Part shown: piece after piece, positions 54,082 through 64,000 of the stretch | Layout: every line of letters starts with the position of its first letter | How positions within the stretch are numbered: the stretch's first letter is position 1 | Source of the DNA: Fimbriimonadales bacterium | GTDB lineage: Bacteria; Armatimonadota; Fimbriimonadia; Fimbriimonadales; GBS-DC | Direction: 5' to 3' | Assembly (NCBI GenBank): GCA_026003075.1 | Contig: BPGO01000003.1 | Location: 259,971-323,970 of the forward strand | Length of the DNA: 64,000 bases | Made by a program: the position numbers and the translations under genes | Notes under the pieces: model-generated | Seen by the model: the letters and a program-made list of their open reading frames with translations, nothing else | Told to the model about the DNA's origin: nothing | Databases searched by the model: none

Positions 54082-54285
54082 CAGCCCGAATACTGGATCG
54101 TTGACCCCGACCGCGAGTACGCGGAGTTCTGGCAGTTGGATGAGACGGGCGCATATCGCGTGGCGTTCGCAGGCAGCGAGGGCGTTTATCGCAGTCGCGA
54201 ACTGAACGGCTTTTGGTTGCGCGTGGAGTGGCTGTGGCAGCAGCCTCCGATGGCGACGGTTCTCCAAGAGTGGGGACTGCACTGA
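54082..54285 (+). pseudogene. Uma2 family (PD-(D/E)XK) endonuclease, 3' fragment
   Basis: PEYWIVDP...GVYRSRELNGFWLRVEWLW; the N-terminal part is missing. Confidence 0.8.
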
Positions 54286-54308
54286 CGCTCCTAAGGTATA
54301 CTTTCGGC

Positions 54309-55457
54309 ATGTCGCGTCCTGTCGTGCGTTTGCAAGGAAGCATCCAGAGCCTACGCTTCAACGGGCAGCCCGCGACCTTGCCTAACTATGAATGGAGCGA
54401 TTTCAATATCAATGCAGCCCGTTCTCCATGCAAAGTGCGCTTAGCTGACGGAGCTGGTCTGGCAGTGTCCAAATGGACAGGTCCGAAGCGCACACGCACC
54501 TATCCACTTGCAAAAGTGTACGATACTTACTCGCACAGCGGTAAGATTGTCACTGTTATACCTATCATCAAGGATGAGGGACGCGGCGAGCGAGAAAACG
54601 ACACTAACCTTGACCGAGTGAACTTTATCACGCTGTCATGGATGAACCTGATGGGCGTGTATGTCATCCTCGCCTGGTATTGTGATGCTGATAAGAAAGA
54701 TAACTACCGAATCACGCGCCAGCGATTAGACAACGATTATGTGCGTCAGAAGATTGAAGAAGTAGCACGCTACAAAATGGACGCCCATCACTGGAACCAA
54801 GACCATTTCGTAAACGAGTTTGTTCCTCTCTACGAAAAAGCGTTGCATAGCTACGCATTAATCGCCCAAAAGTTGGGCGTCGCTATGCATTCCCAGCAAA
54901 GGCTACTTTCGTTTCTCGATGCCGTACGTTCTACGGATAATCCGTGCAAGTTAGATCTTGCAAAGTACGCCGAACTTTCTCTCTCGGCGTCCGAGCGCGC
55001 TGCATTACGAGAGACCGCTACTGAACATCGGATGGAGCGTGTCCAAGTAGGGAACGCCAAGGGCTTCTTTGAGATACATAACTACTTGGGCGGCGTGTAC
55101 TACCTGACTGCTGATGAGGTTATCCTGAATGGGGGCAATCAGGCTATCATACAGGAGAGCAAGAACACCACCAAGCGTCTCCTACCTTCACTGAGCGACA
55201 TCAAGGATGGTCTGTTCAAGCTTTTACTGTTCTCGCAGCTTCAAGAGTTACGACTTGGAGGGGCGTCGCTACAGTTTCGTACCCGACTGCGCTTAACGGG
55301 CGTCTTTAGGGGGAAACTGGAGCTACCTGCCGAACCTGAGGTGTTGAAATCGTTCACTACAGGCTGGGGAGAGCCTGTTCGCCGAAGTTTGCTCTGGCTG
55401 AATGAGGAACTGAGGCGACTTAGCATAGAGGGCTTCCTGGAGGGAACTCACTCATGA
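54309..55457 (+). CDS. Putative type II restriction endonuclease
   Basis: Overlaps (ATGA) a Dam-like methylase; TADE...QESK resembles a PD-(D/E)XK motif; specificity unknown. Confidence 0.65.
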   Translation: MSRPVVRLQGSIQSLRFNGQPATLPNYEWSDFNINAARSPCKVRLADGAGLAVSKWTGPKRTRTYPLAKVYDTYSHSGKIVTVIPIIKDEGRGERENDTNLDRVNFITLSWMNLMGVYVILAWYCDADKKDNYRITRQRLDNDYVRQKIEEVARYKMDAHHWNQDHFVNEFVPLYEKALHSYALIAQKLGVAMHSQQRLLSFLDAVRSTDNPCKLDLAKYAELSLSASERAALRETATEHRMERVQVGNAKGFFEIHNYLGGVYYLTADEVILNGGNQAIIQESKNTTKRLLPSLSDIKDGLFKLLLFSQLQELRLGGASLQFRTRLRLTGVFRGKLELPAEPEVLKSFTTGWGEPVRRSLLWLNEELRRLSIEGFLEGTHS

Positions 55458-56350
55458 CAAAGAGTCCACTTCGCTTTCCTGGCGGCAAGTCGCGGGCGAT
55501 TGGGCAGATTCTCCCTCTGATACCTGACTTTGACGAATATCGCGAGCCGATGGTCGGAGGCGGCTCGGTTCTGTTGGCGTTGCGCCAGCGTTCTCCGCAG
55601 CGCAGGTACTGGATGAACGACCTCAACTACGAACTCTATTGCTTCTGGAAGGTCGCTCAGGAGTGCGCCGACCGCCTCGCGGATACGCTCCATCGCCTGC
55701 ACAGCGAGACTCAGGATGGTAGGACGCTGTTCTATCGCCTGTTGGAACGCTATGGGCAGGGTGACGAGTTCGAGCGCGCCGTGCGCTTCTTTGTGTTGAA
55801 TCGCATCACTTTCTCAGGGACAGTAGACTCAGGCGGCTACTCGGAGCAGGCGTTTCGCGGACGGTTCACCCCTTCTGCGATTGAGCGCATCCGACAAGTT
55901 GCGCCTCTGTTGCAAGGTGTACGAATCACCCACGGGGATTACGAACCCGTATTGCGCGAAGCAGGCGATGAGGTGTTCATCTTTTTAGACCCGCCGTACT
56001 ACTCCGCGACGAACTCGCGTCTGTATGGCAAACGCGGCGAACTGCACCTAAACTTCGATCATCATCGTCTGGCGCGGGTGCTGAACCAGGTCGCGCATCG
56101 CTGGCTGCTTACTTATGACGACAGCCCCTTTATTCGCGAGCTGTACGCTGACTATGCGCAGGTACGATGGACGCTGCAGTACGGAATGAATAACTACAAG
56201 CAGCCGTGTGCGCGTGCTGGGCGTGAGTTATTCATCGCGAACTACCCGATTCAGGCGCGGGATTCCTCGCCGCAACTCGCTTTAGTTTTCGAGAGGAACT
56301 GGAGCCGTTTCTATTCCACTGCAGGCGCAGGCGAAGCGTTGGAGGAGTAG
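55454..56350 (+). CDS. DNA adenine methyltransferase (Dam/D12 family) with actP-like C-terminal tail
   Basis: SPLRFPGGKSR, EPMVGGGSV, NDL, FLDPPYY, ELFIANY; ends AGAGEALEE. Confidence 0.92.
   Translation: MTKSPLRFPGGKSRAIGQILPLIPDFDEYREPMVGGGSVLLALRQRSPQRRYWMNDLNYELYCFWKVAQECADRLADTLHRLHSETQDGRTLFYRLLERYGQGDEFERAVRFFVLNRITFSGTVDSGGYSEQAFRGRFTPSAIERIRQVAPLLQGVRITHGDYEPVLREAGDEVFIFLDPPYYSATNSRLYGKRGELHLNFDHHRLARVLNQVAHRWLLTYDDSPFIRELYADYAQVRWTLQYGMNNYKQPCARAGRELFIANYPIQARDSSPQLALVFERNWSRFYSTAGAGEALEE
56324..56350 (+). repeat. 27-bp copy of the actP 3' end
   Basis: ggcgcaggcgaagcgttggaggagtag versus 52388..52414 ggcgcaggcgaggcgttggaggaataa: 24/27 identical, differences synonymous. Confidence 0.85.
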
Positions 56351-56446
56351 GGTGTCCCCCAGCACGGGTGAGAACCGATTTTGGCTGCGGGTGGAGGGTT
56401 AGGGAACGCGATGGCGGTAAGGCGCGCTCACCCCATCGCGCCCTAA

Positions 56447-57808
56447 TCATCGCGGCGACATCTTGACCTCCAAGTGATCGGGATGGAACTCTATCCAGTA
56501 CACATTACCATGTTTATCCACATCCCACAGGTTAATCAGCCGCCCGACCAAGTTCTCCTGATGTCCATAGCTGCCTATCAGGCGCAGATTCGAAGCGCGA
56601 GGACGGACAAAACGCCCATCCGGCGTGAACTCAATAATCCAGAAGCCGTCCATCAGGGCTATGCCACGATCCGGGTCAGCAGGATCGTCCACCGTAATCC
56701 AATGGCGGCGTGTCGCGCTATAGACCCGATAGAGATGTCCCGCCTCATCCGTCGCAATCGCAAGGTGTCTCTCCAGGTTCACCGTGCCCACAAACCCATC
56801 CCACACATTCGGAACGCGGTCCGAAATGTCCAGATGCCAGACGAACTTCCTGACCACCTCGCCATCAGGACGAACACGCTTGTACGGATCCTTTCTAAAG
56901 AGCGTGATTGTATCGGTTTGGGGTTCCTCGTCAGAGCGCGAGTGGATCACAACAAACTGAACCTCCATCCGCCCCTCCGCTCGTACATCGTAATCGCCTA
57001 TGATAATCTCGCCCCGATAGCGGTCGATTCCCGCCTGATCATATGATGGGTAATCCAGCAGATTGGATCCCCCATCTGGATGGATGACCAGCAAGCGTCC
57101 TTCCAATTGCTTTGTTCCACCCTCTTCAGAAACGATTTGGCGAGCCAAGAAGTAGACCCTTCCGTTGCGATCCACCTCAAAAAACTCAGGTGTGGCGACT
57201 TCTGAGTCTAAGCGAAACTCTGTTGCCGCCCGTTTGATCGCCTCCCCCACTGCCTCCGTGCGCTGCTTGTCGTAGGTTCCGTCGGGGCGGTAGATGGCGA
57301 CACCACGCTTGGCATCGTCCACATAGAGCCAGCCTTGTTCGTCCACCCGAATTCGGGAGGGGAAGCCGTGTTTGAGTTTGATGGTGCGCACCCACTGTCC
57401 CTGACGATTGTAGACCTGCACCCACGGCGCCAGCTGGTCATCTTCTGTAGAGGTCTCTGCTTGAGGGGGTAGCTCGAGATTCTTGTCATAGTGGCGCAGA
57501 GGGTCGGCGATGTAAAACAGTTGCCCATCCCAGCTGACACAGAAGGTCGTGGGTCCACCGCCTGGTAGCGGTTCCCGCAACTCGTCGCCGTTCACCTCGC
57601 TGATCAGCCGTGAGCCAGGAAAGCGCACCCGCAGCTGGGTCGGCTTCTCACCGTAGGCAACTTTGAACAGGGAGACGGGCCGTGAGTCGGTTTGGATAGG
57701 AGGCGTTCGTCCAAAGCTCACGGCTGCAATGGTCAGCAAGCTAATCAGCACCAGCAACATCGGTGCGAGTTCACTCAGGGTTTCACTCTTTCGTAGGGTT
57801 TTTCGCAT
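56447..57808 (-). CDS. Secreted beta-propeller-like protein, paralogue 2
   Basis: Hydrophobic leader; FCVSWDGQLFY, QVYNRQGQWVR, GIDRYRGEII, PNVWD, DVDKHGNVYWIEF, MSPR. Confidence 0.85.
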   Translation of the reverse strand: MRKTLRKSETLSELAPMLLVLISLLTIAAVSFGRTPPIQTDSRPVSLFKVAYGEKPTQLRVRFPGSRLISEVNGDELREPLPGGGPTTFCVSWDGQLFYIADPLRHYDKNLELPPQAETSTEDDQLAPWVQVYNRQGQWVRTIKLKHGFPSRIRVDEQGWLYVDDAKRGVAIYRPDGTYDKQRTEAVGEAIKRAATEFRLDSEVATPEFFEVDRNGRVYFLARQIVSEEGGTKQLEGRLLVIHPDGGSNLLDYPSYDQAGIDRYRGEIIIGDYDVRAEGRMEVQFVVIHSRSDEEPQTDTITLFRKDPYKRVRPDGEVVRKFVWHLDISDRVPNVWDGFVGTVNLERHLAIATDEAGHLYRVYSATRRHWITVDDPADPDRGIALMDGFWIIEFTPDGRFVRPRASNLRLIGSYGHQENLVGRLINLWDVDKHGNVYWIEFHPDHLEVKMSPR

Positions 57809-57823
57809 GGCTCTCACCTCAAC

Positions 57824-60800
57824 TTAGTTTTGGAGTTGCTGCAATCGGCGCAGGCGATAGGTTCTTCCTGATTTGTCTTCGCGCTCCATCAGGTCGCCCA
57901 CCGTATCGGGACGCAAACGCGGGTTACCGCGTGTTGGTAGCGTTAGATGCTCCCCGTCGTTGATGGACACCCTATTATAGCGCCCCGAAGAGTCGATTAC
58001 GTCCACCCAAATATAATAGTCTGTTAGCTCGTTAGTTTTCTTATGTCTTATCTCGTCCCGCCGTGTAAACTCGACGATGAGGGCGACGTGGCTTCCTCTT
58101 TTGACGAGGATATCGCCTGGCTGGGCATTCAGGCGGGCTTGTTTATTGTCGTCCCAGCCGCGCGTGTAGGGATAACTGCCGCTGGCTAAATGTTCGGTTC
58201 CGATATCCCACCAGCGTCTGGTCTGTCGCCTGTCGTCCTGTCGCCTATCCCAACCCAATCCTGCCATCATCGCCGCTGCACTGATAAGTTTGGAGCAATC
58301 GATGCCAAATCCCTGATAGCCGCCCTCTGTGCTACTATCGCGCGTTGTAGGATGGACACGCCCTCCAAACCAGCAACCGCCCCACTCATACCTCACGCCG
58401 ATAAACGCCGTCGCCCACTCCACTACGCGCAAACGATAGTTGGCGTCGCTCCCTTCAAAACGCTCACGCACCGACAGACGCATTGCGGCAGTAGCCTCCT
58501 CGCCACGCCTGTCCAGTCTAGCAAATATTTTTCTTCTCCCACTTACATATTCGTCCCAGTCGCTCTTGGGAATTTTCCCGATCCCTGATACCAGATAGTA
58601 GTCCCAGTCTTGATGAGTCACGGCAACGGCGTACCGTTTTGTGCCACGTTCTGCCCTGAATGAGTAGGTGGGTAAGTTACCTTCAATCTGTCGAAGGGTG
58701 TACCAGTAGATTCGGTTGGGGCGTTCTCCTGTGTGATGATGAACCTCCAACCAGCGGAATTCGAGTTTTGGACCAGGCCAGACACCACATCGTGAAAGGT
58801 CACTAACAGAACGCGAGAAGAAATTATTATCTGGGCGCTGTTCTCCTCGTGACCAGGATACATTCCCAATATAAATACCAGAAGGCTGACGAGTGTATAC
58901 TATACCTTCAGGAAAGTCGATCTCACTATACCCACCGGTTATTACAGGTATCAATTCTATCTCGGTACCGACATAAGGATAGAGCAATTCCTGATTGCTA
59001 CTTGTTGCACCTCCACGAACTGCGTAGAAGATACCTACATTAAAGATTTGATACGTTGTGAACTTAGGTGCAACGCCAACTTTTACCTGCCTTGGATGGT
59101 TATCACGATAGTAGCCTGCAAAATTATCAGTGAAGCGGGGTATAAAGTGATAGGTTCCGAACCGAGTCATCTGGTTCTCAGGAATGCGCACAATAACTGT
59201 ATGTTCGCCTTCAGTAAAATATGCCGAGTCGATATTTTCAGAATGGATAGGATTGCGCACATCATTCCCAAAATGAACGTCGATGTGTCCACGCGACACC
59301 AAAGGGGTTCTTTGGAGATTAGAACGGGTGTTCTGCAGACGATACCTGATAGCAAAGTCAAAGGTGCGTTGTTGTGAGTTGTATCCCAAGGCAGTCAGGT
59401 TGAGCAGATCCATATGCACCCAACTTGCTGTGGTATCTACATTCACGAAGGAGCCTATAAAAGTTCCCAGACTCGCTGCAATTTGGTAGGGCACCTCGTT
59501 CTCTAATCCACTGTAGGGCGTGCGTTGTATCTGGACGAGGACGCGACCCGGCAGATTAGTATTATTCACTGAATGCGTCGTCGTACCTGTCTGCACCTGC
59601 AGAAGTAAATCGCCCTGCCAGTGGGGTGAAATCAGATCCAGCTCCACAGTCTGCGTTTGTTCTGTCTCAGAAAAGATGATCCAGTCGTCACTGGCTATAC
59701 GCACGAGAGGGTTGCTTACATTGAAACGGAACTCTTTTTTACAAACCCTACCTGCGCCATTTGTCGAATACTGGAGATAGGTCACTTCTGCAGTGTTTTC
59801 CCCGTTCGGCATCCCGATATCTGCTCTTCCAACATCGTTGTTCCAACCATAGGTGTAGTCAAGGGTTCCCTCTTTAGAGCCGCTTAGGCATCGGCAATAT
59901 TCACGGATCCCATAGGGGTCGTTGCATTCCCAGTAGTCCAAGTACAACCTGCGTTCTGGAAACGCCCCCTCGGGGCGATTATTTTTGAAGGTTACATAAC
60001 TGAAGTAAAGCGTGGGCGGTTCAGGCGAATCCGCAGCATAGAACTTGTACATATCCGCAACTGTGGTCGTGCATCTGAGCGATTCATGGTCATGTTCGAC
60101 AAAATAGTACTCCAACCCAACACGGAAGTCTGCGCATCTACCTGGTAGGAAGCAGCCTGGCTCGCCGATTCGGCAAAATGACCCTAATAAAGTTCCACCT
60201 ATTCCAAACTGCGGAAAGTTGAACCTCACTTGGAATGAACTTGGCTGCAGCGTCGATTGCAACGCAAAAATGAATTGCCCATTCTCGTTCGTAAGGGGAT
60301 GATTCCCGATCCAGTGGATCGTGCCCGCGGTTGTATGGATTTCCACAACAGCACCCGGCACTGGTTTGCCATCAACGTCCCGAATCGTTATCGCTCCCCA
60401 AATTAGGCTCTCGCCATCGGCAGGGACGCTCGGCATATGCAGTCCTGCTCTCACTTGATATCCATTCTCCAAAGCCTGCGTCAGTGTTCCATTCTGAAGA
60501 GCGGCGCTAAGCACTTCATTTGCTATCTGGTTCTCTCGGTCAGTCTGAGCAAAAGATAACTTAGGAGGGTACACTACTACACCCATCGTCAATAGGATTA
60601 CCACAGCGCGAACTTGTCTTGCAGCGAGCGAGGCAAGCACTCTATCCCCCCCCCCCGCGCTTTCATCCAGCGGAAAGACTGGTTGATCATCAACATCAGC
60701 ACCTCCGCCAATTAATTCGCTCTCTGCTCCCCAAAAGGTTGACAGCATAGTCTGTGCTTTTTGACGCATTCGGCAGAATTGGCATTTGACGGTTCCCACA

Positions 60801-61225
60801 CTGACATTTAGGCGGCGTGCAATCTCCTGATAGGTATATCCCTCCAGATAAAGATGGAGCATCTCCTGCTGTTGGGGAGAGAGCTGCTCCTCAAGCCTCT
60901 GTCGAAGCAGCTGCATTTCGGCGTGTTCTATAAGGCGGGTTTCAGAACCCTCGTGACCCTCGGGTAAAGGAGCATCCCAGTTTTCAAGCGTGATGTTTCG
61001 TTGCGTTGGTGCGCGACGGTTCCAATCAATGGTGCGAAGGCGAAGCCAGCGTCGGCAAACGGTTCGCGCCCACTGATGCGGGTGATATTCCCAAGGCAGG
61101 ACACCGAACACCTCCCAAAACTGCAGCAGGACCTCTTGCACGATGTCTTCTGCGTCTGCGGCGCAGCGCGTCAAGGGCTGGGCTACAAAAAGCATCCAAG
61201 CACGCCATTCAGTCTCAGTACACAT
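57824..61225 (-). CDS. ECF sigma-70-like domain joined through a G11 tract to signal peptide, invasin-type Ig domain and C-terminal NlpC/P60 domain
   Basis: AEDIVQEVLL (region 2); LSPQQQ...EGYTYQEIARRLNVSVGTVK (region 4); SFA-Q; VPADGES...RDVDGKPVPGAVVE...TNENGQ; GVRYEWGG...GIDCSKL...QPGDILV..GSHV. Confidence 0.85.
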   Translation of the reverse strand: MCTETEWRAWMLFVAQPLTRCAADAEDIVQEVLLQFWEVFGVLPWEYHPHQWARTVCRRWLRLRTIDWNRRAPTQRNITLENWDAPLPEGHEGSETRLIEHAEMQLLRQRLEEQLSPQQQEMLHLYLEGYTYQEIARRLNVSVGTVKCQFCRMRQKAQTMLSTFWGAESELIGGGADVDDQPVFPLDESAGGGDRVLASLAARQVRAVVILLTMGVVVYPPKLSFAQTDRENQIANEVLSAALQNGTLTQALENGYQVRAGLHMPSVPADGESLIWGAITIRDVDGKPVPGAVVEIHTTAGTIHWIGNHPLTNENGQFIFALQSTLQPSSFQVRFNFPQFGIGGTLLGSFCRIGEPGCFLPGRCADFRVGLEYYFVEHDHESLRCTTTVADMYKFYAADSPEPPTLYFSYVTFKNNRPEGAFPERRLYLDYWECNDPYGIREYCRCLSGSKEGTLDYTYGWNNDVGRADIGMPNGENTAEVTYLQYSTNGAGRVCKKEFRFNVSNPLVRIASDDWIIFSETEQTQTVELDLISPHWQGDLLLQVQTGTTTHSVNNTNLPGRVLVQIQRTPYSGLENEVPYQIAASLGTFIGSFVNVDTTASWVHMDLLNLTALGYNSQQRTFDFAIRYRLQNTRSNLQRTPLVSRGHIDVHFGNDVRNPIHSENIDSAYFTEGEHTVIVRIPENQMTRFGTYHFIPRFTDNFAGYYRDNHPRQVKVGVAPKFTTYQIFNVGIFYAVRGGATSSNQELLYPYVGTEIELIPVITGGYSEIDFPEGIVYTRQPSGIYIGNVSWSRGEQRPDNNFFSRSVSDLSRCGVWPGPKLEFRWLEVHHHTGERPNRIYWYTLRQIEGNLPTYSFRAERGTKRYAVAVTHQDWDYYLVSGIGKIPKSDWDEYVSGRRKIFARLDRRGEEATAAMRLSVRERFEGSDANYRLRVVEWATAFIGVRYEWGGCWFGGRVHPTTRDSSTEGGYQGFGIDCSKLISAAAMMAGLGWDRRQDDRRQTRRWWDIGTEHLASGSYPYTRGWDDNKQARLNAQPGDILVKRGSHVALIVEFTRRDEIRHKKTNELTDYYIWVDVIDSSGRYNRVSINDGEHLTLPTRGNPRLRPDTVGDLMEREDKSGRTYRLRRLQQLQN

Positions 61226-61349
61226 CTGTACCCCCTAAGTATTATACATTACTATTAGTTACACACAGACAAGATTCCTGCCATTTAGGTACCGAATTGG
61301 CGAGGCCATGCGGAACCTTGTTTGCCTGAGTCAGGTACACTTTGTCCTG

Positions 61350-62039
61350 ATGAGGACTCTCTGCCGTGCGCCCGAAGTGTGGCGCGACATGGGACTGACC
61401 GACGCCGAGTACCAACGCATTGCGGACCTGATGGGACGCGAGCCGACCGATGTGGAACTGGGCATGTTCGCCGTGATGTGGTCGGAACACTGCGGTTATA
61501 AATACTCGCGCCCGGTATTGAGCCTCTTTAAAAGGTATCGCGAGTCGCTGGAGGGCGCAGGCTTTGAGAACGCAGGCGTGATACCGCTGGATGAGAATCT
61601 GGGCGTCGCGTTCAAGGTGGAGAGCCATAACCATCCTTCGGCGGTGGAACCTCATCAGGGGGCGGCGACGGGCGTGGGGGGCATCATCCGCGATATCTTC
61701 ACGATGGGCGCCCGCCCTATCGCGATTTTGGACTCGCTGCGCTTTGGTCCCTTGAACGAGCCGCGCAACCGCTACCTGTTTGAGCATGTGGTGGAGGGCA
61801 TCTCCAGCTACGGCAACTGCATCGGCGTGCCGACGGTTGCGGGCGAGGTCTATTTCCATCCGTGTTATTCGGGCAACCCGTTGGTGAACGCGATGGCGGT
61901 CGGCGTCGTGGGGATGGCGCTGAACCTGCTGACGGCGATTATCGTCTCGCGCCTGACGCCCCCACCTCCTACGCATATTCAGGAGATTGTGGACTCGATT
62001 CGCATTCCGCGCGGCGCAGGCGAGGCGTTGGAGGAATAA
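61350..62039 (+). pseudogene. purL: purL 5' fragment fused in frame to an actP 3' end
   Basis: [46 protein letters not shown], then [20 protein letters not shown]...GAGEALEE. Confidence 0.92.
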
Positions 62040-62162
62040 CAAAAGCAGGGATGCAAAACTTGCATCCCTGCCCAATAAACTCTACTGCCTTGGTGACATC
62101 ATTACGCGCAAGTGGTCTGCCTGAAACTCCACCCAGTACACATTTCCGTCGCGATCGACGTC
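61901..62162. repeat. 262-bp direct repeat, copy 2
   Basis: Matches 52276..52537. Confidence 0.95.
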
Positions 62163-63368
62163 GCACAATCTGTTGGCGAAATCGGTTTCCAGCGGCAGAT
62201 TGCGCGCACGCACACTTCTGAAATGACCCTGTGCGTCGAACTCCACGATTGCGAAGCCCCGATCTACGGTAAGCCATTCTCTCGCAGAAGCGGTCGGAAT
62301 AGCATGCCGCTCGATACGGGACGCCAGGTAAATCCGATATAGACGACCTTCGTTGTCCGTCATCACATTATCTGGCAACCAGCCGCGATAGGTGAATACA
62401 TACGCATCGAAAAGATTAGGCGCGTGCTGCGCGATGTCTACTTGCCACGAGAAGGTTCTCAAGACCTCACCGCTTGAATCGACGACCTTGTAAGGGAGAG
62501 ATGTATAAAGGTTGCACTGTTCCCTTTTGATTTCACGCTGTTCGCCAACGTCGTACAAGACGGTTTCATGCTGCCGAATGTATCCCTCTGTGAGAGGACG
62601 CTGGTAGTTAGCGGTGATGATTTCCCCACGATACCGATCAATACCCAGTGGGTTGAAAATTTCTATCGGGACAAGACGAGTCTGACCGTCTGGCGAAACG
62701 ATTAGCAGATTGTTTAGTCCTGACTCACCTTCTGGCACAGCCTCGCGACTCAAGAACACCCAGAAATAGATGCGTCCAAGACTATCTACCTCGCGAAAGA
62801 TGACCTTTTCCAAGTTATACTGGACACGCGCCGCACGTACCGAGCGTTGTAGCTGTTCAGACAAGGTCTTGTTGTAGCTCCCGTCAGAGTTGTAGACCTC
62901 CACCCCTTCATCGCCGCCAACATACAGGCGTCCGTCCCGATCCACCCGAAAATAGGAAGGGCGTCCCTTAATTATCTTGATCGTTCTCACCCATTCTCCC
63001 CTTCGGTTGTACACCTGTATCCACGGGGGCGATTCTTCCTTGGCTTCACGGACAGGAGTGTTCTCGTCGTCAAATTTAGGTATGGCGCGCATTGAGTCGC
63101 AAAAGTAAAAGAGTTGTCCATCCCAACTGACGCAGAAGTTGTCGACGCCCCCATACGGAGGGTCTTCCTCACCCTCCTCAGCGTCATCGCGTGAACAAAA
63201 CAGCACCATGCGCAGCTGCTGAGGATGGTCGCCAAACTTCACCTTGAACAGTTCCTGCTCTCGCGGTTGGGCAAGAGCGAGCCTTCCCAACGGCAGAACA
63301 GTGAGTAGAGCGAGCAGTATCGCTGTAAGCAGTCGCCAATCCCTTAGTGTTCGTCGATTATGTCGCAT
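62082..63368 (-). CDS. Secreted beta-propeller-like protein, paralogue 3
   Basis: Signal peptide ending ALA-QP; FCVSWDGQLFY, QVYNRRGEWVR, GIDRYRGEII, DVDRDGNVYWVEF, MSPRQ. Confidence 0.85.
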   Translation of the reverse strand: MRHNRRTLRDWRLLTAILLALLTVLPLGRLALAQPREQELFKVKFGDHPQQLRMVLFCSRDDAEEGEEDPPYGGVDNFCVSWDGQLFYFCDSMRAIPKFDDENTPVREAKEESPPWIQVYNRRGEWVRTIKIIKGRPSYFRVDRDGRLYVGGDEGVEVYNSDGSYNKTLSEQLQRSVRAARVQYNLEKVIFREVDSLGRIYFWVFLSREAVPEGESGLNNLLIVSPDGQTRLVPIEIFNPLGIDRYRGEIITANYQRPLTEGYIRQHETVLYDVGEQREIKREQCNLYTSLPYKVVDSSGEVLRTFSWQVDIAQHAPNLFDAYVFTYRGWLPDNVMTDNEGRLYRIYLASRIERHAIPTASAREWLTVDRGFAIVEFDAQGHFRSVRARNLPLETDFANRLCDVDRDGNVYWVEFQADHLRVMMSPRQ

Positions 63369-63371
63369 AGC

Positions 63372-64000
63372 TTACCTCCTTCTATCGGGAATGCGTCGAA
63401 CTTGATACCCGTGCGTGTTTGCATCCATGAGCCTTCTTAAGGCACACTGATGCCGTCCCGTGCGGTGATTTCCAGAAGCCTGCTGAGTCTGAATACGAAC
63501 CCTATTCGCGCTCGCACCCGTTGACTCGAGTAGATCGATGCGAGTTACCAAGTAGTCAGCAGTCTCTCCTCTTTCGTCCGCGATCGGGGTTTTATCGATA
63601 CCGTATACGAACATCACATGGCCTCTCCATTTCACTCTTTCTACCAGCTGACCAGTTCTCTGGTCGCGTACCCAATATGTCTCTGTACGACGCACTAAGA
63701 TGTCCCCTCTATCAATCTGGATTCGCGCCTCTCTCTCAGAAGAAAAGCCGTTTGTATAGCTTGACCCCATAAGCATGCCCGTGTTTATCTCTCTCCAATC
63801 TGCCGGCCAGGTAATTCCTTCCATTCGCGCGGCGGAAGTAACTAATTTGGAGCAGTCGATCCCGAAACCTTGATAGCCCCTTGACAAGTCCCTTAATTCA
63901 GGGTGTACATATCCTCCGAACCAGCAGCCGCCCAGCTCATATCGCACATTCTGAAACGCTGTCGCCCACTCCAGCAAGCGCAGCCGATAGTTTGTGTCGC
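63372..64000 (-). CDS. NlpC/P60 C-terminal region of another family member (5' end outside the window)
   Basis: NYRLRLLEWATAFQNVRYELGGCWFGG...GYQGFGIDCSKL...GDILV...GHV, homologous to the C-terminus of 57824..61225. Confidence 0.88.
   Translation of the reverse strand, partial: DTNYRLRLLEWATAFQNVRYELGGCWFGGYVHPELRDLSRGYQGFGIDCSKLVTSAARMEGITWPADWREINTGMLMGSSYTNGFSSEREARIQIDRGDILVRRTETYWVRDQRTGQLVERVKWRGHVMFVYGIDKTPIADERGETADYLVTRIDLLESTGASANRVRIQTQQASGNHRTGRHQCALRRLMDANTHGYQVRRIPDRRR

Follow-up and report, generated by a model that had tools for sequence, protein, structure and literature searches.

The open reading frame and its poly-G junction

We analysed a stretch of 64,000 nucleotides from a Fimbriimonadales bacterium (Armatimonadota; assembly GCA_026003075.1, contig BPGO01000003.1, positions 259,971 to 323,970; hereafter the window), and within it an open reading frame (ORF) at 57824..61225 on the minus strand, in which an extracytoplasmic function (ECF) sigma factor is read through into an exported protein with an immunoglobulin (Ig)-like domain and an NlpC/P60 domain. 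The ORF runs through 1133 codons without interruption, and the order of the domains in the ORF is correct as first described in an earlier note on this DNA. This is the fused state of the locus, found at a length (n) of 11 for the poly-G tract at the join. The source genome (G000) is a metagenome-assembled genome (MAG) of 18 contigs and 2.6 Mb, 84% complete.

The ECF sigma core (sigma2 + sigma4) occupies residues 14-160 (60746..61186, minus strand). It matched the sigma70-ECF model TIGR02937 at 70.4 bits against a cut-off of 42.9, covering profile positions 17-164 of 165, and Pfam Sigma70_r4_2 over residues 113-155 at 42.8 bits against a cut-off of 25.7, which bears out the sigma region 2 and region 4 motifs read earlier at the N-terminus; the match to Pfam Sigma70_r2 over residues 8-57 reached 18.8 bits, under its cut-off of 24. 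Judged by its profile matches, the sigma part is a complete ECF core, i.e., a predicted group 4 sigma-70 factor with the sigma2 and sigma4 domains only. The NCBIfam subfamily and equivalog models all scored far under their cut-offs on this part, and no anti-sigma family of Pfam or NCBIfam matched within the 1133-residue ORF, where a linker of ~45 residues joins sigma4 to the hydrophobic segment described below. We also asked whether the exported protein might be a classical downstream anti-sigma factor; the idea was rejected, since no more than ~20 of its residues precede the hydrophobic segment.

The acidic and glycine-rich linker that had been noticed after the sigma domain is present at residues 161-196 (60638..60745, minus strand) and doubles as the zone of overlap with the 5' end of the exported-protein gene. 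Continuity of the ORF hinges on a homopolymer at 60646..60656 (G11 on the minus strand, C11 on the plus strand; codons 190-194), the candidate switch. Upstream of the tract, an ATG in the +1 frame (60694..60696, minus strand; MLMINQSFRWMKARGGG...) is preceded by a GGAGG Shine-Dalgarno-like motif (60702..60706, minus strand), which lies 5 nt 5' of the ATG and inside the sigma linker codons. At n=9 or 12 the exported protein probably starts at this ATG, and the gene calls of P0003 and P0108 use the same start; in the assembled G11 state, the +1 frame from the ATG closes after 32 codons. The GTG that the note had picked out at 60640 exists, in frame, at 60638..60640 (minus strand), and is a CTG in the junction variant with the flank TTAGAC.

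Frame states were assigned by reading the real sequence, unaltered, on both sides of the tract and joining the two parts by arithmetic. The homopolymer is placed at the junction so that a change in length alters the reading frame, giving three states. For the type of junction found in the window (type A), the sigma factor runs into the exported protein at n=8, 11 or 14, the fused state and that of the window. At n=9 or 12 the sigma factor ends in ...ESAGGG(G)*, its stop being a TAG immediately 3' of the tract, and the frame opening with MLMINQSFRWMKARGGG... enters the exported protein (ON). At n=10 or 13 the sigma factor gains a tail of about 15 amino acids (aa), and the upstream alternative frame stops (OFF).

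Beyond the tract the exported body begins with a signal-peptide-like segment (60545..60607, minus strand), with the h-region AVVILLTMGVVVY at residues 207-219 and SFA|Q at residues 224-227. The 19-residue stretch of highest hydrophobicity in the 1133-aa protein starts at residue 200, in agreement with the hydrophobic segment ending SFA-Q described earlier, and homologues likewise have a small residue followed by Q at their N-termini (FAQ in P0002, P0003 and L016; LAQ in P0005; FSQ in L014). The invasin-like Ig domain (Big_1) proposed for residues 267-327 (60245..60427, minus strand) was matched with an E of 4.5e-7 and 30.3 bits, and is sub-threshold against the cut-off of 34.9; precomputed PF02369 matches are listed on homologues of the body.

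The C-terminal region (57827..58678, minus strand) was assigned by profile and model to a divergent NlpC/P60 papain-like domain (Cys977, His1046) followed by a variable tail. As a single sequence, the C-terminal 284 residues gave no Pfam or NCBIfam match and 0 PDB matches at E<=10, and NCBIfam matched nothing on the protein outside the sigma part. A whole-library search found 84 relatives of the C-terminal piece, and a profile of 61 sequences matched RipB (3pbi, E 3.3e-5), 8er5, RipA, CwlO and MepS. PF00877 did not match the query, and matched 3 of the 61 homologues at E<=0.001 (best E 8.8e-5). The AlphaFold model of the piece had a pLDDT (predicted local distance difference test) of 81.6, and Foldseek placed RipB, P60 and RipA at the top with a TM-score, normalised to the target, of up to 0.71. 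Cys977 is invariant in the 61 sequences, Asp976 nearly so, and His1046 is present in at least 90%. By motifs and fold, the C-terminal domain is thus predicted to be a divergent NlpC/P60 domain below the family model threshold, and the earlier assignment was sustained by the profile, the fold and the catalytic Cys/His pair, the single-query family searches being empty.

Tract length among samples, paralogues and relatives

Four public hot-spring runs contained the junction stretch (X1, X2, X3 and X6), all as assembled contigs. The junction of X2 has the ATAGAG flank of the window with G12 in place of G11 (contig of 399 nt, depth 205.8) and is ON; those of X3 and X6, an RNA library, have G9 with the flank TTAGAC and are also ON; the A-type junction of X1 has G11 with the flank TTAGAC and is fused. 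X1 additionally contains a junction of a second type (type B, see below) with a tract of 12, which is fused. In three of the four runs (X2, X3 and X6), the tract length sets a stop directly after the sigma domain. No claim of transcription is made from the RNA library, as contigs cannot show transcription.

G000 itself holds five copies of the sigma gene, each closing in a long poly-G tract. The window copy (G11, type A body with Ig and NlpC/P60 domains) is fused. Two copies termed A' (C3:326209 and C3:340832), with G12, the flank TTAGAC and a body 80% identical, have the sigma factor ended by the TAG after the tract and are ON. The remaining two (C3:335238 and C8:12413), also with G12, precede an unrelated body with a transmembrane (TM)-like segment at its start (type B), where the frame scheme is that of type A shifted by one (fused at 9 or 12, ON at 10 or 13); both are fused. 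The protein records are in keeping with these states: P0099 and P0100 are sigma-only proteins of 193 aa ending ...ESAGGG; P0096 and P0097 are sigma factors plus a tail past the join; P0003 (MLMMANLSFRWMKTWGGG...) and P0108 (MLMRAGRWMKARGGVRLLASL...) are exported proteins begun in the alternative frame. P0103 has an ordinary start without a tract. The starts chosen by gene callers (P0002, P0004, P0095, P0101 and P0104) were rejected as indicators of the tract state, an A' copy that is ON by arithmetic being annotated from an internal Met.

We examined if homologues were fused or split. The whole-protein query found five proteins, three from outside G000 (918-969 aa) without a sigma part, and two from G000 (P0004, 885 aa, body only; P0006, type B and fused). 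A search by the sigma part for longer proteins gave one match, the same own-genome type B protein P0006. Outside G000, each body relative found was either a body-length protein of 881-980 aa or the neighbour of a separate sigma gene, and sigma-only proteins of 193-207 aa share the 90% cluster of the query. A sample of 100 further genomes of the order gave matches in 11, which belong to the same family, and where both sigma and body were present they were neighbouring, separate ORFs: G080 has a sigma/body junction without a long tract, in G027 a 75-nt gap separates the two ORFs, and the one-contig genome G021 has G10 at the junction. In G004:C18 (locus L013, 1528-1539), a homologous exported body gene without a sigma gene upstream has a G12 tract three bases 5' of its ATG; a tract in this position would affect initiation or transcription and not the reading frame. 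An independent NCBI MAG encodes a type B fusion (GIV10269.1; P0091, 1065 aa) with a sigma part that differs from that of the window at several residues. Fusion is not conserved among the body homologues, and the fusions seen are tract-dependent only. Metagenomes scanned for the exact junction pattern gave no match, a protein-guided metagenome scan gave 188 pattern matches with 0 confirmed, a viral-contig scan gave 0 matches, and a scan of genome contigs returned the known locus only (JAOAFW010000375.1, which is G080).

The fusion of a sigma factor to a hydrolase-type domain, the central claim of the earlier note, therefore stood in part. It holds for the ORF as assembled and for the fused frame of the G11 contig of X1, and in type B a paralogous sigma gene is fused to another exported body. 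It does not hold for the body relatives found outside the genome, which are unfused; and, as a designed and fixed fusion, it is not easily squared with the Shine-Dalgarno motif and ATG that the body keeps or with the variation in the tract. Splitting of the homologues and a tract length placing a stop after the sigma domain had been named as what would count against the fusion; both were largely found, the first outside G000 and the second in the contigs of three of the four runs.

Long tracts are a wider property of this lineage. G/C runs in G000 are under-represented at lengths 6-9 and become more frequent again at 10-12; 17 runs have a length of at least 10, where extrapolating the decay among shorter runs gives 1.8, and paralogous copies inflate the observed count. 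Eight of 20 runs of at least 9 lie directly 3' of an ECF sigma4 match, and most of the others lie just 5' of signal-peptide-like segments. Among family relatives, 12 of 25 sigma loci have a run of at least seven G within 400 nt 3' of sigma4, one of these runs, a G7, falling within the body gene. Classification of nine sigma-linked junctions gave four ON (L016, L031, L019, L021), three OFF (L045, L047, L034) and two fused to a Cys-rich domain of 140-160 aa (L030, G12; L037, G10). A TAA or TAG stands directly after the tract in six of the nine, and in L016 and L031 the ATG of the alternative frame has GGAGG or AGGAGG before it. L016 (G10, ON) and L045 (G11, OFF) are orthologous, with junction flanks common to both. 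Of 101 genomes of the order, 73 contain runs of at least 10 G, some of these runs lying at contig ends where they may be artefacts; the control tried for this count was the same homopolymer read backwards, and was set aside as uninformative.

Further long tracts in G000 were located at C2:291743 (G15), C2:294491 (G10), C3:68608 (C17) and C8:104736 (C10), and at C1:3726, C11:2133, C11:58387, C18:20292, C4:193146, C5:193004 and C7:85923. These sites are the ends of other ECF sigma genes or lie a few codons 5' of signal-peptide-like segments in large ORFs; four of the tracts are one repeated family at contig ends. A G10 at C2:6428 is inside a 903-aa ORF.

The partner gene and the paralogous cassettes

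Directly downstream of the enzyme lies a gene for an exported protein of 456 aa (56447..57817, minus strand), a neighbour conserved in G080 and G042. It has 28 homologues, all without a function name, and no NCBIfam match; as a lead from language-model features only, it resembles six-bladed NHL/SGL beta-propellers. Complex prediction of the NlpC/P60 piece with this partner scored 0.87, and the best of three controls 0.00. Of 80 solved complexes 58 attain this mark, as do 2 of 110 mismatched pairs; own alignments were used, and the calibration is only rough. The runs gave 0.87, 0.00 and 0.87, with shared contacts of at least 0% and a partner pLDDT of at least 76. Contacts predicted with confidence involve both neighbours of Cys977 (residues 976 and 978), the stretch 1044-1046 that contains His1046, and a large share of the variable tail (1052-1123). 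The model thus supports binding, and the partner is predicted to lie over the active site of the NlpC/P60 domain.

A second cassette enters the window with its partner of 428 aa (62082..63368, minus strand), 37% identical to the 456-aa protein, and with the C-terminal NlpC/P60 end of the A' paralogue (63372..64000, minus strand), the 5' end of which is beyond the window; its sigma gene and G12 tract are at G000:C3:326209-326790. The paralogous bodies are near-identical over their first two thirds, and the enzyme part diverges together with the partner. The arrangement suggests a sigma-controlled pair of an enzyme and a predicted inhibitor or immunity protein.

Several observations concern the copying of these cassettes. 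Orphan fragments at G000:C3:330990-331163 and C8:8173-8346 share 86% identity with the final 57 residues of the query. They follow the type B cassette and immediately precede a partner gene of the 456-aa type, which is intact on C3 and seems to be broken on C8. The A' cassette copies (C3:322000-327800 and C3:336623-342423) are ~5.8 kb each, lie 14.6 kb apart and differ at 8 aligned positions. One of these differences, a 1-nt indel at C3:326667, disrupts the sigma frame of one copy; either that copy is decaying or the indel stems from the assembly. The type B loci (G000:C3:332927-335818 and C8:9796-12993) have a sigma gene 99-100% identical, G12 and an unrelated body of 770-870 aa with a TM-like start and a Pro-rich stretch; Pfam and NCBIfam match their sigma part only. 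Sigma modules and bodies appear to have been reshuffled between strains, GIV10269.1 having the type B body with another sigma variant.

On the plus strand, a 243-aa ORF (window 61308-62039) joins the N-terminal part of purL (FGAR-AT linker + AIRS) to the last ~30 residues of a sodium/solute symporter. Further purL-related sites are G000:C3:335901-336632, C3:326804-328429 and C8:13076-15361, with a full purL on C8 beside the type B cassette. It would seem that the sigma cassettes were duplicated along with a divergent purL 5' end, leaving chimeric ORFs at the duplication borders. The GAGEALEE ending of the 243-aa ORF is also found after a methyltransferase gene (55454-56350). The plus strand of window 54213-56350 holds a D12-class N6-adenine DNA methyltransferase (Pfam E 1.1e-36) in a 4-nt overlap with the end of a 414-aa ORF, for which no family match was obtained; the two may be a restriction-modification pair between two cassettes.

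Readings of the locus and comparison with known systems

We consider it probable that the locus is no fixed fusion gene but an overlap of two genes with a hypermutable poly-G tract, the fusion being one of its states. The stop found directly after the tract in six of nine sigma-linked junctions, and the Shine-Dalgarno-like motif before the alternative start here and in L016 and L031, are both consistent with two overlapping genes that have a mutable tract between the start of the second gene and its signal peptide. The interval between start codon and signal peptide is the usual place of the tract in translational phase variation of exported proteins. Gene 1 would encode an ECF sigma factor of about 193-194 aa, and gene 2 an exported protein of about 955 aa, comprising a signal peptide, Ig-like domain, middle and NlpC/P60 domain and started from its own GGAGG-ATG in the +1 frame, inside the sigma linker and 17 codons before the tract. 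Tract slippage would yield three heritable states: at n=9 or 12, a short sigma factor with the exported protein translated separately from the ATG of gene 2; at n=10 or 13, a sigma factor with its ~15-aa tail and an exported-protein frame that stops; at n=8, 11 or 14, a sigma factor read into the exported protein. The sigma gene would be altered at its tail only, except in the merging frame, and the third gene of the operon would supply the exported protein predicted to cap the enzyme active site. We infer that the length differences arise by reversible slipped-strand mutation within populations, and that n=9 or 12 is the designed ON state.

Several points weigh against this two-gene switch. 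The tract lengths all come from assembled contigs, and within-population heterogeneity and reversibility are outside their reach. The OFF length (10 or 13) was absent at the A-type junction, for which the fused state was seen twice (window and X1) and the ON state in X2, X3, X6 and the A' copies of the genome itself; paralogous copies are not independent counts. A consensus scan of 56200-61450 found no promoter-like site 5' of the sigma start; the same region had 6 promoter-like sites against 4.3 expected and 7 terminator-like sites against 4.5 expected, none of the latter on the minus strand after the partner gene, and no operon boundary emerged from the scan. Finally, type B was fused in all three assemblies showing it (G000, X1 and GIV10269.1), which would be unexpected if fusion were only a neutral by-product, the cases being few and the samples possibly related.

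These type B junctions speak for an alternative in which the fusion is selected and working, giving a membrane-tethered ECF sigma factor for which the exported protein supplies the anchor, its signal-peptide/TM segment. The enzyme, and later the sigma factor, would be set free by signal peptidase or by additional proteolysis, and the tract would toggle between free and tethered sigma. In type B (sigma, G12, the TM segment SSKYLLVIILLGFVAFGYAGVIA and a body of ~770-870 aa), fused in both copies of G000, in X1 and in GIV10269.1, no ATG, GTG or TTG occurs in the body frame in the codons just after the tract. The fused frame stands at the A-type junction in two assemblies, L030 and L037 are in-frame sigma fusions to a Cys-rich domain, and sigma factors with TM-containing C-terminal extensions are known (IutY, ECF48, ECF52 and ECF53; PMC8999054). 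We nevertheless hold a tethered sigma factor to be unlikely: no anti-sigma family was matched and the linker is short; the exported protein keeps its Shine-Dalgarno motif and ATG and the sigma factor its stop after the tract, as suits two genes; body relatives outside G000 were found unfused only; and all three frames occur among relatives. In a wider version, a family of ECF sigma genes in hot-spring Fimbriimonadales would have a three-way poly-G switch built in, which would alternate between a free sigma factor with secreted enzyme, a silenced enzyme, and a sigma factor tethered via the signal peptide of its own target. Here the fused state would be selected and not incidental, type B being fused in all three assemblies showing it; we regard this version as unlikely too.

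It is improbable, in our estimate, that the assembly miscalled the homopolymer of the window as G11 and that the source population has G12 and simply two genes. The contig of X2, with both flank letters of the window, has one C more and so is G12; the MAG is in 18 contigs and incomplete; and the frame-breaking 1-nt indel between the A' sigma twins makes assembly indel errors possible. Against a miscall, G11 was obtained from an independent run (X1) at the sister junction, so that a length of 11 does exist, and tract lengths vary among runs regardless. Both products could also come from one allele by transcriptional slippage or ribosomal frameshifting, with fused and separate proteins coexisting in each cell. 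The overlap design would permit a fixed product ratio, and long homopolymers can provoke polymerase slippage; however, the DNA length itself varies between samples, which is sufficient for the states, and the RNA-library contig X6 has one length, G9. We attach very little probability to this explanation.

The better-supported finding is the poly-G switch at an overlap of ECF sigma and exported-protein genes, repeated across paralogues and genera. As a caution, the 1133-aa 'fusion protein' of the database rests on one homopolymer base. The results also point to a systematic placement of poly-G contingency tracts at ECF sigma/exported-gene overlaps in free-living thermophilic Armatimonadota. A fused state that works would offer an uncomplicated means of tying a regulator to the export of its own target; if the three-way switch is true, export or cleavage of the target protein would set sigma activity. 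Full-text searches found no literature linking ECF sigma genes to phase-variable tracts, although supplements to ECF classifications may list relevant groups, and none on phase variation in Armatimonadetes/Armatimonadota; to our knowledge, work on phase variation has mostly centred on host-adapted pathogens.

Poly-G phase variation of contingency loci is known from Campylobacter, Helicobacter and Neisseria. For Helicobacter canadensis, PMC2823697 reports phase-variable poly-G tracts, C-terminal phase variation and a proposed tract-dependent merger of HCAN_0660/HCAN_0661. The present locus resembles such loci in having a G9-12 tract in the 5' coding part of an exported-protein gene, between start and signal peptide; in the position of the same tract at the 3' end of the upstream gene, where its length alters the C-terminus or merges the ORFs; and in the many such tracts per genome. 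It differs in that the upstream gene is an ECF sigma factor itself, that the arrangement is found again at several sigma paralogues and, within one family, in several genera, and that the host is a free-living hot-spring Fimbriimonadales and not a host-adapted pathogen; the length differences reported here are those between samples and paralogues.

ECF sigma factors with fused membrane-spanning C-terminal extensions include IutY (ECF243), SCO4117 (ECF52), ECF48 and ECF53 (PMC8999054, PMC7826278). The fused state would have the same order of sigma2-sigma4, linker, one hydrophobic segment and a large extracytoplasmic part. Those proteins are fixed fusions with an anti-sigma-like (zinc-finger or FecR-type) domain before the TM helix, whereas the protein of the window has no matched anti-sigma domain, its hydrophobic segment looks from its residues like a cleavable signal peptide, its fusion is tract-dependent, and its extracytoplasmic part ends in a peptidoglycan-hydrolase-type domain.

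That domain aligns with the NlpC/P60 endopeptidases RipA, RipB, MepS/Spr and CwlO in the motifs YxWGG, GxDCS and GD(I/L)..HV, conserves the Cys and His and matches them in predicted fold; unlike them, it falls under the Pfam and NCBIfam thresholds and has long insertions and a variable C-terminal tail. Polymorphic effector-immunity cassettes include amidase effectors with their cognate immunity proteins, and orphan C-terminal modules. The cassettes described here are similar in their shared N-terminal two thirds, in the co-divergence of enzyme and partner, in the orphan C-terminal fragment and in the predicted cover of the Cys/His site; they are dissimilar in that the partner is large (428-456 aa) and exported instead of being a small immunity protein. 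The combination of sigma factor, NlpC/P60 protein and predicted inhibitor, with swapped C-termini, may represent a new kind of cell-wall-active effector/immunity pair.

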